Below are positions 28,201 to 49,594 of a stretch of 64,000 bases of DNA, piece after piece. Numbering within the stretch: position 1 is the first letter of the stretch; each line of letters starts with the position of its first letter. A model generated the notes under the pieces. It was not told the DNA's origin. It did no database searches and saw only the letters and a program-made list of their open reading frames with translations. The stretch is from Squalus acanthias. Its lineage: Eukaryota. Both the position numbers and the translations under genes were made by a program. Location: the NCBI GenBank assembly GCA_030390025.1, contig CM059431.1, forward strand, positions 135,720,001-135,784,000, given 5' to 3'.

Positions 28201-28854
28201 TGTAGAGGGTAAAGCTGCATTAATCTAATGGCATCTGCTGACTCCAACCTCAAAAAACCCTCCACCCCAATGTGGCATTTCTATTTCTCATAGCATATGT
28301 TCTAATAGTTACTGAATTACCCAATTAGTGACAAATTATGGACCATTTTGTTCTGTGTAACTTGTCCCTGTGAGGACTTTGAATGAGGTTGTCCAAACCT
28401 GTTTCATTTCTGGCAAATGATTGAGACTGTGTTCAGTGCCTTTAGCTTCTCACAACTAGATTGAGGCTGCCCAATTCCATTTCAGTCTGCCAAATGGATT
28501 GAGAGCTGTCAGAGAGGAGAGGTTATCACTCTGGATTTTAACCCCAATTCCCAGGACTTCTGACATGATTTTAATTATATTTAATGTTATTGATGACAGG
28601 GAATGATCCTGTTGCCCTAGCCTAACACAATGAATGTTGGAATACATCAATAATGGAAGATGTAAAAAATGCACTAATTTCTTCCTTTAGTTTCTGCGCA
28701 CAGTTTGGCATATTGTGTAAATGATAAAAGCCCAGCAAAAATATTCAATAAGCAACTAAATTGTTTGTAGTTAGTTACATTAATAAGCTTCATGTGGCAG
28801 TTTTTTGTGTTTATTTACCAGTCAATTGTGTTCTACAGCAAAGTGTAGAAATGC

Positions 28855-29340
28855 AGTGATCATAGAGGATTTGATGGTCAGGGGGATAGACAGATGCTTC
28901 TGCAACCGTTGACGTGAGTCCCACATAGTGTGTTGACTCCCTGGTGCCAGGGTAAAGAACATCACTGAGAGGGTGCAGACCATTTTAAGAGGGGAAGGGG
29001 AACAGCCAGAAGTCGTGGTTCATGTGGGAGCCAATGACATAGGAAGGAAAAGGGTTGAGGTACTACAGTCTGAGATTCAGGAGCTAGGGAGGAAATTAAA
29101 GAGCAGGACCTCAAAGGTAGTAATCTCTGGATTACTCCCAGTGCCACGTGCTAGTGAGTATAGGAATAGTAGAATAAGACAGGTTTCCACGTGGCTGGAG
29201 AAATGGTGCAGGAGGGAAGACTTCAGATTCCTGAGGTATTGGGACCAGTTCTGAAGCAGGAGGGACCTGTTCAAAGTGGACAGATTGCATCTGGGACCAA
29301 TGTCCTCGCGTGACGGTTAACTTGTGCTGTGGGGTGGGTG
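28855..29340 (+). pseudogene. CR1 ORF1 SGNH/GDSL esterase-like domain
   Basis: ORF 28973-29254 EVVVHVGANDIG...KVVISGLLPVP. The downstream DRLHL matches the SGNH DxxH block. Stops are present. Confidence 0.8.
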
Positions 29341-30032
29341 ATTACGGATGGGCACCAGGATGAAACATTAGAAAATAGAAACAAGGTGCACAGAGGGCTG
29401 GGAGAGACAAATAGCACTAGGGTGAAGAATAGTTCAGAAATGGGAGCCAAATGTGAGGCAGTCTAAGATGGGTTTGGAGTGCATGTGTGTAAATGCACGT
29501 AGCATGGCTAATAAGGTTGGTGAGCTGCAGGCACAAGTCGCCACATATGACTATGGTATAGTGACAATAACAGAGAAGGGGAGGATTGGGAATTTAATAT
29601 TTCTGGCTACAAAACATTCGCTATGATGGGGAAGAAAAAAACGAGGGAGGTGGCTGTATTTATCAAAGAAACTATTATAGCTTCAGAGAGGAGCTGTTAC
29701 TGCATGCATACTATAGGCCCCCAAATAGTGGGAAAGAGCAAATTTTCAGGCAAACTTCAGAAAGATGCAAGAACTACAGTGTAGTGATAATGGGGGACTT
29801 CAATTATCCTAATATAGAATGGGATAGTAACAGTGTAAAGGGAACAGAGAAGGAATTCCTGAAATGTGTACAAGAGAACATTCTTGATCAGTGTGTTTTC
29901 AGCCCAATAAAAAATGAAGCAGTACTGGATCCAGTTCTGTAGAATGAAGTGAGGAAAGTAGAGCATGTTTCAGTGGGAGAGCACTTGGGGAACAGTGATC
30001 ATAATATAATAATATCATTAGGTTTAGAATAG

Positions 30033-44290: not shown

Positions 44291-44465
44291 AGGTTGTCCT
44301 AGGGGGAGTGTTTGCTAGTGCTGTTGGGGAGGGTTTAAACTAAAGTGGCAGGGGGTTGGGAACCTGAGCAGGGAGACAGAGGAAAGGGAAACAAGGAAAA
44401 AAGCAAAAGACAGGAAGGAGAAAAACAAAAGTAGAAGGCAAAGAACTCAACGGTTAAAATCAAAC

Positions 44466-47400
44466 ATGGTCACTGTATTAAATAATTCATATACGTCTGA
44501 GAACGTTAAAAAAACAAGCCTGAAGGCTTTGTGTCTTAATGCAAGGAGCATTCGGAACAAGGCGGATGAATTAGCTGCGGAAATAGAGGTAAATGAATAC
44601 GATTTGATTGGGATTACAGAAACATGGCTCCAGGGTGGCCAAGGCTGGGAACTCAGCATCCAGGGGTATTCAATATTTAGGAAAGATAGGCAAAAAAGAA
44701 AGGGAGGTGGGGTAGCATTGCTGGATAAAGAGGGGATTAACACAATTGAAAAGAAGGGTATTAGCTCTGATGATGCAGAATCTGTATGGGTAGAACTGAG
44801 AAATAACAAGGGGCAGAAAAAGTTAGTGGGAGTGGTATATAGACCTCCAAACAGTAATACGGAGGTTGAGGATGGCATTAAAAGGGAAATTAGAGAAGCA
44901 TGCAGTAATGGCACAGCAGTCATCGTGGGTGACTTTAATTTACATATAGATTGGGCTAACCAAATTAGTAAAAATACTGTGGAGGAGGAATTCCTAGAAT
45001 GTTTACGGGATGGTTTTCTGGAACAATATGTCGAGGAACCAACCAGAGATCAGGCCATCTTAGACTGGGTATTATGTAACGAGAAAGGATTAATTAGCAA
45101 TCTTGTTGTACGAGGCCCCTTCGGTCAGAGTGATCATAATATGATAGAATTCTTCATTAGGATGAAGAGTGAAGTAGTTGAATCAGAGACTAGGGTCCTG
45201 AATTTAAATAAAGGAAACTATGATGGTATGAGGCGCGAATTGGGTAGGATTGATTGGGGAATGTCACTCAAAGGGTTGACGGTGGATAGGCAATGGCAAA
45301 CATTCAAAGACTGCATGGATGAACTACAGAATTTGTTCATCCCAGTGTGGCATAAGAATAAAACAAAAAGGGTGACTCAACCATGGCTAACAAGGGAAAT
45401 TAGGGATAGCATAAGATCCAAGGAGGGGGCATATAAATTGGCCAGAAAAAGCGGTAACACTGAGGATTGGGAGCAGTTTAGGATTCAACAAAGGAGGACA
45501 AAGGGATTAATTAAGAAGGGGAAAATAGAATATGAAAGTAAGCTTGCAGGGAACATAAAAACTGACTGTAAGAGCTTTTATAGATATGTGAAGAGAAAAA
45601 GATTAGTGAAATCAAGTGTAGGTCCCTTGCAGTCAGAAGCGGGGGAAGTTATAATGGGGAACAAAGAAATGGCAGATCAATTAAATGCATATTTTAGTTC
45701 TGTATTCACAAAGGAGGACACAAATAACCTCCCAGAGATGTTGGAGAACATAGGGTCTGATGAAAGGGAGGAACTGAAAGAAATCAGTATTTGCAGGGAA
45801 ATGGTGTTAGGGAAATTGACGGGATTGAAGGCCGATAAATCCCCAGGGCCTGATAATCTACATCCTAGGGTACTTAAGGAAGTGGCCCTAGAAATAGTAG
45901 ATGCATTGCTGATCATCTTCCAACATTCGATGGAATCTGGAACTGTACCCATGGATTGGAGGGTAGCTAATGTTACCCCACTATTCAAAAAGGGTGGTAG
46001 AGAGAAAGCGGGGAATTACAGACCGGTAAGCCTGACATCGGTAGTGGGGAAAATGCTAGAGTCCATTATAAAGGATGTAATAGCTGAGCACTTGAAAAAC
46101 AGTGACAGGATCGGACAAAGTCAACATGGATTTACAAAAGGTAAATCGTGCTTGACTAATCTACTGGAATTTTTTGAGGATGTAACTGGGAAAATAGATA
46201 AGGGAGAACCAGTAGATGTGGTGTATTTGGACTTTCAAAAGGCTTTTGATAAGGTCCCGCATAAGAGATTAGCGTGTAAAGTTAAGGCACATGGGATTGG
46301 GGGCAAGGTATTGACTTGGATAGAGAACAGGTTGGCGGACAGAAAGCAGAGAGTAGGAATTAATGGGTCTTTTTCCGAGTGGCAGGCAGTGACTAGTGGG
46401 GTACCACAGGGTTCAGTCCTTGGACCCCAGCTATTCACAATATATATAAATGATCTAGATAAGGGAGCTAAATGTAACATCTCCAAGTTTGCAGATGACA
46501 CAAAGCTGGGTGGGCGTGTGTGCTGTGAGGAGGATACCGAGAAACTCCAGGATGATTTGGACAGGTTGGGTGAGTGGGCAGAAGCGTGGCAGATGCAATA
46601 TAACGTGGATAAATGCGAGGTTATCCACTTTGGTGTCAAAAACAGAAAGGCAGACTATTATCTGAATGGCAATAGATTGGGAGAAGGGGAAGTGCAACGA
46701 GACCTGGGTGTCCTTGTGCACCAGTCGCTTAAGGTAAGCATGCAGGTGCAGCAGGCGGTGAAGAAGGCAAATGGTATAGAACATAGAACATAGAACAGTA
46801 CAGCACAGTACAGGCCCTTCGGCCCTCGATGTTGTGCCGAGCATTGTCCGAAACCAAGATCAAGCTATCTCACTCCCTATCATTCTGGTGTGCTCCATGT
46901 GCTTATCCAATAACCGCTTGAAAGTTCCTAAAGTGTCCGACTCCACTATCACAGCAGGCAGTCCATTCCACACCCCAACCACTGTCTGAGTAAAGAATCT
47001 ACCTCGGACATCCCTTCTATATCTCCCCCCATACACCTTATAGTTATGCCCCCTTGTAACAGCTACATCCACCCGAGGAAATAATCTCTGAACATCCACT
47101 CTATCTATCCCCCTCATCATCTTATAAACCTCTATTAAGTCGCCTCTCATCCTCCTCCGCTCTAAAGAGAAAAGCCCTAGCTCCCTCAATCTTTCCTCAT
47201 AAGACCTCCCCCCCAAACCAGGCAGCATCCTGGTAAATCTCCTTTGCACTCTTTCCAATGCTTCCACGTCCTTCCTATAGTGAGGTGACCAGAACTGCAC
47301 ACAATATTCCAAATGTGGTCTCACCAAGGTCCTGTACAGTTGCAGCATAACCTCACGGTTCTTAAACTCAAACCCCTTGTTAATAAACGCTAACACACTA

Positions 47401-49086
47401 TAGGCCTTCTTTACTGCTCTATCCACTTGAGTGGCAACCTTCAGAGATCTGTGGATATGAACCCCCAGATCCCTCTGTTCCTCCACGTTCCTCAGAACCC
47501 TGCCGTTGACCCTGTAATCCTTATTCAAATTTGCCCTACCAAAATGAATCACCTCGCACTTATCAGGGTTAAATTCCATCTGCCATTTTTCGGCCCAGCT
47601 CTGCATCCTATCAATGTCTCTTTGCAGCTTACAACAGCCCTCCACCTCATCCACTACTCCACCAATCTTGGTGTCATCAGCAAATTTACTGATCCACCCT
47701 TCAGTCCCCTCCTCCAAGTTATTGATAAAAATCACAAACAGCAGAGGACCCAGCACCGACCCCTGTGGCACACCGCTGGTAACTGGTCTCCAGTCCGAAA
47801 AATTTTCCCTCTGCCTTCTATGAGATAGCCAGTTACTTATCCAATCGGCCAAATTTCCCTCTATCCCACAATTCCTCACTTTCTTCATGAGCCGACCATA
47901 GGGAACCTGATCAAACGCCTTACTAAAATCCATGTATACGACATCAACTGCTCTACCTTCATCTACACACTTAGTTACCTCCTCAAAGAATTCAATCAAA
48001 TTTGTTAGGCAAGACTTACCCTTCACGAATCCATGTTGACTATCCCGGATTAAGTTGCATCTTTCCAAATGGTCATAAATCCTATCCCTCAGGACCTTTT
48101 CCATTATCTTACCAACCACCGAAGTAAGACTAACCGGCCTATAATTACCAGGGTCATTCCTATTTCCTTTCTTGAAGAGAGGAACAACATTCGCCACTCT
48201 CCAGTCCTCTGGCACCATCCCCGTGGACAGTGAGGACCCAAAGATCAAAGCCAAAGGCTCTGCAATCTCCTCCCTTGCCTCCCAAAGAATCCTAGGATAT
48301 ATCCCATCTGGCCCAGGGGACTTATCGACCCTCAGGTTCTTCAAAATTACTAAAACATCTTCCCTCAGAACATCTACCTCCTCCAGCCTATCCACCTTTA
48401 TCACACTCTCATCCTCAAAAACATGGCCCCTCTCCTCGGTGAACACTGATGAAAAGTATTCATTCATCACCTCTCCTATCTCTTCTGACTCCATGCACAA
48501 GTTCCCACTACTGTCCTTGATTGGCCCTACCCTCATGTTGGCCTTCATAGCGAAAGGGTTTGAGTATAGGAACAGGGATGTCCTGCTGCAGTTGTACAGG
48601 GCCTTGGTGAGACCACACCTTGAGTACTGTGTGCAGTTTTGGTCACCTTATCTGAGGAAGGATGTTCTTGCCATGGAAGGAGTTCAGCGAAGATTCACAA
48701 GGCTGATACCTGGGATGGCAGGAATGACACATGAGGAGAGATTGGGTCAATTGGGCTTATACTCGCTGGAGTATAGAAGAATGAGAGGGGATCTCATCGA
48801 AACATATAAAATTCTGACAGGTCTGGACAAACTAGATGCAGGAAGAATGTTCCCGATGGTCGGAGAGTCCAGAACCAGGGGTCATAATCTAAGGATAACG
48901 GGTAAGCCATTTAGGACAGAAATGAGGAAGAATTTCTTCACCCAGAGAGTGGTGAACCTGTGGAATTCTCTACCACAGAAGGTAGTTGAGGCCAAGTCAT
49001 TAAATATATTCAAGAATGAGTTAGATATATTTCTTAAAGCTAAAGGTATCAAGGGATATGGGGAGAAGGCAGGTACAGGGTACTGA
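44466..49086 (+). CDS. CR1 ORF2 (APE endonuclease + reverse transcriptase); 44466-46775 joined to 48535-49086 gives 953 codons, currently disrupted by the insertion
   Basis: LNARS, ITETW, VYRPP, GDFN, ILDWV and SDH (EN); [19 protein letters not shown] and FADD (RT). The join reads KKANG|MLAFI in frame with no stops. Confidence 0.9.
46776..48534 (-). mobile_element. Young 5'-truncated CR1 of a different subfamily, nested antisense
   Basis: Open RT ORF from 48534 to 46860 with one short in-frame deletion near RRQRENF. (ATAGAAC)n tail at 46776-46797. Confidence 0.96.
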
Positions 49087-49594
49087 GTTTGGATGATCAG
49101 CCATGATCTCATCGAATGGCGGAGCAGGTTCGAGGGGCCGAATGGCCTACTCCTGCTCCTATCTTCTATGTTTCTATGTTTACTACAGGCACTTTAGAAT
49201 CGAGGAACTTGCCAAAAACCACGAAAAACTACCTGCAAAATGTCTCCCATACAGTTGCAGCAATTTAAATGGGAGCAGGTGAGGATCATTAAAGTAGCGC
49301 TGGAAATAGCCACCCACTGAGATTTGTTGGCAGCCTAGGATTTCTGCGTAGGTTGAGGAAGTAGTGGTGGCAGTGTTGATTGAGGAGAAAATGATGTTGG
49401 GGTCTTTACTACATCACTTGACCCCTATTTCAATATTTGAGTTCGGACCCTGCCTTTTTCGAGCTGGAGCCTAAATCTGCCTAAACATCTGAGCAGCTGC
49501 GCCTCCAGCGGTAAACCTCTGACCCCGTGGACCTTTGGGGATTCTAGTATTCAGTGCCTTGTCAAGCTGCAGGCTGTCCAGAGGGTAGTACTTG

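Follow-up and report, generated by a model that had tools for sequence, protein, structure and literature searches.

Comparison of CR1 retrotransposons across lineages suggests that -1 ribosomal frameshifting at a conserved U_UUA_AAC heptamer probably joins their two reading frames into an ORF1-ORF2 fusion. The heptamer, its phase, the adjoining stop codon, the open -1 spacer and conservation at the level of single bases were found across CR1 lineages. The original prediction had read one such junction, in a window of 64,000 nucleotides (the whole stretch of Squalus acanthias DNA that was analysed), as a possible source of a Gag-Pol-like ORF1-ORF2 fusion. Cross-lineage conservation of the heptamer, the phase, the open -1 frame and the synonymous sites makes this reading a likely one. 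As far as sequence comparison goes, the window holds a recoding-like signal that is real and deeply conserved, in an otherwise ordinary dead CR1 copy.

The ORF1/ORF2 junction of the focal copy

The focal element and its parts lie in the window as follows:

44296..44343, + strand: remnant of the ORF1 esterase (SGNH), the final 15 codons (VLGGVFASAVGEGLN) and TAA, matched by tblastn to P0024 residues 300-314
44334..44340, + strand: slippery heptamer U_UUA_AAC in the ORF1 phase, kept in related loci
44341..44343, + strand: ORF1 stop codon (TAA), adjoining the heptamer; a stop is also found here in 8/9 relatives with the exact heptamer
44340..44537, + strand: purine-rich, K/R/E-rich spacer from the slip site to the endonuclease, stop-free in the -1 frame (0 stops versus 5 and 6)
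44351..44360, + strand: G-rich tract GGGGG-NN-GGG, a candidate single-stranded stimulator, starting 11 nt after the heptamer
44466..44468, + strand: candidate reinitiation start, the earliest ATG past the ORF1 stop and in frame with ORF2; its context is strong, with A at -3 and G at +4
44538..45137, + strand: APE endonuclease domain of ORF2 (Pfam PF03372, E 1.9e-11)
45996..46646, + strand: reverse transcriptase domain of ORF2 (Pfam PF00078, E 2.8e-32)
46778..48534, - strand: second CR1 copy, an antisense insertion in the focal ORF2 (tblastn with P0001; minus-strand ORF)
48535..49181, + strand: remainder of the focal copy, namely the end of ORF2 (stop at 49084-49086), the hairpin of its 3' UTR and its short repeats at the terminus

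The TTTAAAC at 44334-44340 had been placed in the ORF1 phase with the stop directly behind it, and the junction does read T-TTA-AAC-TAA. The phase is backed by the match of the remnant to the C-terminal part of P0024, one of the ORF1 representatives, with 13 of 15 residues identical over residues 300-314 (tblastn, E 0.026), and by upstream contigs: the loose ends of related contigs (runs X1 and X5), translated by eye, extend upstream as DGLHLGRTGT in the same frame as the remnant. The -1 frame, taken in the original prediction for the ORF2 frame, reads FKLKW... and belongs to an open frame of 824 codons (44319-46793) that carries Exo_endo_phos and RVT_1 (ORF list and Pfam). The long open stretch ahead of the first ATG was likewise borne out, the ATG at 44466 being codon 45 of the ORF2 frame with no stop earlier. 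Over the 207 nt from the heptamer to the endonuclease motif, the other two frames contain 5 and 6 stops and the -1 frame contains none. Two features of a canonical -1 signal, a phased X_XXY_YYZ heptamer and a downstream ORF open at -1, are thus present in the window. TTTAAAC occurs 10 times in the window, where 9.52 occurrences are expected; the heptamer alone is at chance level, so the case depends on the relatives of the focal copy.

The depth of related contigs jumps at about 44295, which marks the 5' edge of the focal copy; the copy is 5'-truncated there, with 15 ORF1 codons left. Both truncated and interrupted, this genomic copy is dead. The ends of the antisense CR1 nested in it (46778-48534) show a mere 2-base duplication. 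The features that define the CR1 class were found, namely an APE endonuclease and a reverse transcriptase in ORF2 (Pfam) and an SGNH esterase ORF1 (the remnant matching P0024), and the ORF1 family profile matches PDB 4c1b (E 2.3e-37). The assignment of the focal element to CR1 itself rests on the likeness of its junction to CR1-labelled rows of the PMC13343379 supplement, as far as these rows were covered (see below). The focal family was found in sequencing runs under at least six organism labels. At about 28811-30011 the window holds another CR1, a decayed one that has an esterase ORF1 and an endonuclease; its junction region, heptamer included, has apparently been deleted, so that this miss carries no weight.

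Conservation of the heptamer across CR1 lineages

To collect relatives, ORF1 esterases were gathered by homology, 8 of them were aligned and the alignment was scanned over metagenome contigs; the motif was not part of the pattern search. Of nine newly collected ORF1 proteins, seven have LN as their last residues; the other two are a fused model and a truncated protein. The scan yielded 31 ORF1-homology loci, 25 of them from a single assembly, and 20 of the 31 are cut before the ORF1 end. Among the remaining 11, which span it, TTTAAAC stands exactly at the ORF1 end in nine (six assemblies), with a stop after it in eight of these nine. The two exceptions are L009, a decayed T/A run, and L013, which is without the segment. 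Judged by their 3' repeats, the nine heptamer loci look amniote- or bird-type. ORF2 is stop-free at -1 from the heptamer to the endonuclease in 5 of the 6 loci that reach the endonuclease, L025 being frameshifted. The endonuclease motif lies at codon 40, 40, 40, 54 or 91 in the loci and at codon 69 in the window: the length of the spacer changes and the frame is kept. A decayed CR1 ORF1 fragment was also seen in a 506-base contig of a Providencia assembly (L002:83-456), probably as vertebrate contamination, and the viral and prokaryote sequence collections gave no usable matches.

The conservation extends to bases that the protein does not fix. The U preceding Leu (in Ser, Cys and Ala codons alike), the TTA and the AAC are invariant in all six ORF1 tails that are intact, while a single codon is kept in just 4 of the 23 other columns in which the amino acid is invariant. 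Four-fold sites are 21-65% identical in pairwise comparison (five ORF1 copies), and TTA accounts for 7 of the 85 other ORF1 Leu codons. As the synonymous bases of the heptamer are fixed while other codons drift, the constraint acts on bases. Alignment of junctions had been put forward with the original prediction as its check, and the heptamer, the phase and the open -1 frame are all kept in CR1s found via ORF1 protein homology, synonymous positions included. When four runs were mapped to the window, no variant fell in 44326-44344 among the 40 variants listed.

Published consensus rows were compared in the same way (PMC13343379 supplement, first 400 letters of each row, species read from the row abbreviations). 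A search led by the GLH codons gave 13 matches, 8 of them with a CR1 ORF1 end, and the heptamer with its stop is present in 7 of these 8. EubMac_CR1-1, a row with low-confidence letters, is without the exact heptamer at its ORF1 end. A motif-led search gave 44 matches, 19 of which lie at the ORF1/ORF2 junction as judged by eye. By their abbreviations, the rows with a junction heptamer come from shark, ray, chimaera, bowfin, coelacanth, frog, lizard and crocodilian hosts. Three synonymous variants of the heptamer were found at no CR1 ORF1 end within the first 400 letters of the rows. One fish row labelled Crack (AldAff_Crack-2) has an esterase-like ORF1 end with the identical heptamer and stop; ORF1 is reported absent from vertebrate Crack elements (PMC13343379; here and below, papers are cited for the portions covered).

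Two NCBI gene models of the stingray Hypanus (P0005 and P0013) run from ORF1 through FKL into the endonuclease in one frame. As annotated, they repeat this -1 reading in a ray, which is not a sign of expression. The name given to P0005, "hydroxyacid oxidase 2 isoform", looks like a misannotation.

The endings of ORF1 proteins point in the same direction. We compared 150 ORF1 representatives, 112 of which have an apparently full C-terminus. Endings compatible with a slippery site were found in 71 of the 112 (LN in 61, GN in 9, KN in 1), against a background of 0.8% for these dipeptides elsewhere in those proteins, in a set of related rows that was searched for with a profile ending in LN and arranged by a quick tree; the other 41 do not fit. 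The LN ending is kept across ORF1 tails of 25-39 residues, and all nine GN endings are QGN, as G_GGA_AAC requires. LN, GN and KN are the endings that U_UUA_AAC, G_GGA_AAC and A_AAA_AAC, respectively, would give, a correspondence drawn from protein for GN, KN and long-tail LN; these three are among the most shift-prone heptamers with mammalian ribosomes (PMC5009743). For the GN and long-tail LN lineages, neither longer fused proteins nor DNA was found, the latter in the viral contigs and the first 400 letters of the PMC13343379 supplement rows. Two ORF1 clades (7 and 8 rows), one of which shares the DGLHP motif with the crystallised ZfL2-1 type, have none of the three endings, so the esterase fold has no need of them. 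Some proteins of the GN clade end in FFH, FFR, LEN or QEN (P0079, P0095, P0122, P0139 and P0169), for which further slippery spellings (U_UUU_UUY, G_GAA_AAC) are possible at the protein level.

Downstream sequence and a model for ORF2 expression

Frameshifting by -1 is standard in retroviruses and coronaviruses. The coronavirus (IBV-type) and retroviral gag-pol arrangements share with CR1 the same heptamer and a gene order in which the polymerase comes second, at -1, behind a structural gene. UUUAAAC, originally described as a coronavirus-type slippery site, is identical to the IBV-type heptamer, named as highly shift-prone in PMC5009743. Unlike in coronaviruses and gag-pol, no downstream stem-loop or pseudoknot was found at the CR1 junction and the stop adjoins the heptamer. 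CR1 also differs from gag-pol in being a non-LTR retrotransposon whose ORF2 is without a protease match in Pfam.

The hairpin proposed as a stimulator (CAGG...CCTG) had to be given up: its folding energy is -6.5 kcal/mol (z about -1), 30 of 200 shuffled sequences fold equally well, and it is not kept in relatives. No conserved local fold was found downstream of the heptamer in the junctions compared, where z ranged from -2.85 to +1.14 with L004 alone clearly low. The stem-loop or pseudoknot of a canonical -1 signal was not found here, the pseudoknot being judged by the near-lack of pyrimidine partners in the window spacer, and Rfam gave no match at the junction at E up to 1. Two long-range pairings were tried and rejected. 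The best sites for a partner of the G-run in ORF2 were unlike between copies, and pairing with the element's own 3' end showed no cognate preference, with equally strong body windows in 2/30 (window copy), 25/26 (L005) and 14/23 (L008). The shark junction G-tract (44345-44363) is similar to the 5' arm of the hairpin in the 3' UTR of bird CR1 (PMC4316615), which is probably a coincidence given the lack of cognate pairing.

Besides the adjoining stop, the feature that does recur downstream is a run of at least 4 G. Its first G lies at +11 in eight of ten junctions and at +10 in one, L006 ending too early. Gly codons of the -1 frame could be a partial source of this conservation. With the G-quadruplex option of ViennaRNA, a weak two-tier structure was predicted in 3 of 9 junctions (window, L005 and L014). 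Natural use of a G-quadruplex for frameshifting was not known as of a 2016 review, in the portion covered (PMC5009743). The same review describes the PRRSV nsp2 frameshift, which is stimulated by nsp1-beta and PCBP and in which a short, C-rich, single-stranded stretch 11 nt past the shift site takes the place of an RNA structure, and an umbravirus frameshift site reported to depend on a nearby stop (PMC5009743). The distance of 11 nt is equal in PRRSV and CR1, and the motif is C-rich in the former and G-rich in the latter; the resemblance may be taken as a lead only.

If CR1 does frameshift at U_UUA_AAC, a fraction of ribosomes would slip back one base through tandem tRNA slippage on the heptamer. 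The pause would come from the adjoining stop and the G-run 11 nt downstream rather than from a hairpin or pseudoknot, with the G-run probably acting through a bound protein or as a weak two-tier G-quadruplex. The product would be a minor fusion of esterase, spacer, endonuclease and reverse transcriptase with the predicted junction ...GEGLN-LKWQG..., and a stop-adjacent AUG may serve in parallel in some lineages. Such a fusion would set a high ORF1p:ORF2p ratio and bring the reverse transcriptase into the ORF1p particle, as Gag-Pol does. A more far-reaching version can be put forward only tentatively: that -1 frameshifting is ancient in CR1, with swaps among U_UUA_AAC, G_GGA_AAC and A_AAA_AAC between deep lineages, and that it is driven by the G-run at +11 (through a host protein or a G-quadruplex) and not by an RNA fold. 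If true, the G-run would be a natural G-tract stimulator of frameshifting and a control point for CR1 activity; a structure-free stimulator would be of interest to the recoding field.

CR1 is the dominant mobile element of most non-mammalian vertebrates. CR1-group elements make up 22-34% of shark and ray genomes (PMC13343379). If frameshifting holds, the CR1 reverse transcriptase acts as part of an ORF1-ORF2 fusion, the annotated starts of ORF2 are wrong, and the apparent frame break at the junction is not decay. Among other LINEs, the literature searched names a -1 frameshift for ORF2 in the Dictyostelium TRE5-A and TRE3-A only, which are said to need it (PMC5911963); these are APE-type LINEs as well, with a host group and an ORF1 different from those of CR1. 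A frameshift within HeT-A gag is also mentioned (PMC5009743). No paper proposing -1 frameshifting for CR1 was found in the literature searched, the CR1 papers of the 1990s, Kapitonov and Jurka 2003 and Kojima 2005 lying outside its scope. The term "CR1" is absent from the first 300,000 of the 449,034 characters of PMC5009743, "frameshift" is absent from the main text of PMC13343379, PMC3905857, PMC3894237 and PMC2734521, and the portions covered of PMC4255032, PMC7175516, PMC4316615 and PMC2817409 added nothing on CR1 frameshifting.

Reinitiation and other constraints on the junction

How ORF2 is translated in LINEs is an open question (PMC3894237, PMC5009743). The alternative that survives best, unlikely though we judge it, is termination followed by reinitiation, which would give a free ORF2 protein; ribosomes would restart at a nearby AUG (UAAUG or UAGnnAUG, SART1-like), at whichever AUG comes first downstream (44466 in the focal copy) or, as proposed for L1, with no AUG at all. 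SART1 uses translational coupling at UAAUG, which downstream structure is reported to affect (PMC3894237), and AUG-independent initiation is favoured for mammalian L1 ORF2 (PMC5009743). CR1 resembles both in its bicistronic LINE RNA and, in some lineages, in a UAAUG or stop-adjacent AUG. Of nine loci, five carry an in-frame AUG two bases past the stop, as codon 5 of the -1 frame, and the consensus rows ScyCan_CR1-1a, SquAca_CR1-17a and SquAca_CR1-6c have a UAAUG that overlaps it (PMC13343379 supplement, first 400 letters). Codons 4 and 5 of the junction register would match the positions at which P0002 and P0004 start. Since the ATG at 44466 precedes the endonuclease domain and its context is strong, the focal copy by itself leaves room for reinitiation. 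The stop-adjacent AUGs, the UAAUG rows and this context together make reinitiation possible.

Unlike SART1, however, the focal copy and several relatives are without UAAUG at the junction, and no SART1-like downstream structure was found. A stop-adjacent in-frame AUG of any kind is absent from the focal copy, L006, L010, L014, L025, P0005 and P0013, and in four of nine loci the AUG that comes first past the stop lies out of frame. At 44345, A makes up 52-89% of the summed depth in four runs; with 44346-44347 assumed unchanged, this G-to-A change would make an out-of-frame AUG the first after the stop, probably in most relatives of the focal copy. In the 110 nt ahead of the stop, only three of ten junctions contain UGGGA, which we take to be a TURBS-like motif, and its distance from the stop differs among them. 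The AUG comes and goes by lineage, yet the heptamer shows no decay where an AUG is present. Reinitiation would not need the fixed synonymous bases of the heptamer and leaves both these and the LN, GN and KN endings unexplained. The depth of related contigs collapses at 44438-44491, around the ATG at 44466, and this low cover has no evidential weight.

Less probable still is that the motif is kept for another cause, as a protein C-terminus or as a DNA or RNA element (the palindrome GTTTAAAC, a protein-binding site, or a signal for termination or processing), while ORF2 is expressed in an unrelated way. In its favour, the last helix region of the esterase ends with LN, no stimulatory RNA structure was found, and the junction 12-mer with its G-rich tail also occurs in the 5' UTR of SquAca_CR1-18 and SquAca_CR1-3, about 120-130 nt before the probable ORF1 start (same supplement, first 400 letters). 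Protein constraint, however, cannot fix synonymous bases, and two esterase clades do without such endings. The base preceding the heptamer is G, C, A or T, so the palindrome GTTTAAAC is not the conserved thing. Nor would a frame-blind element hold ORF2 at -1 across stop-free spacers of varied length. A splice acceptor is unlikely because both TAA and TGA variants occur and there is no pyrimidine tract.
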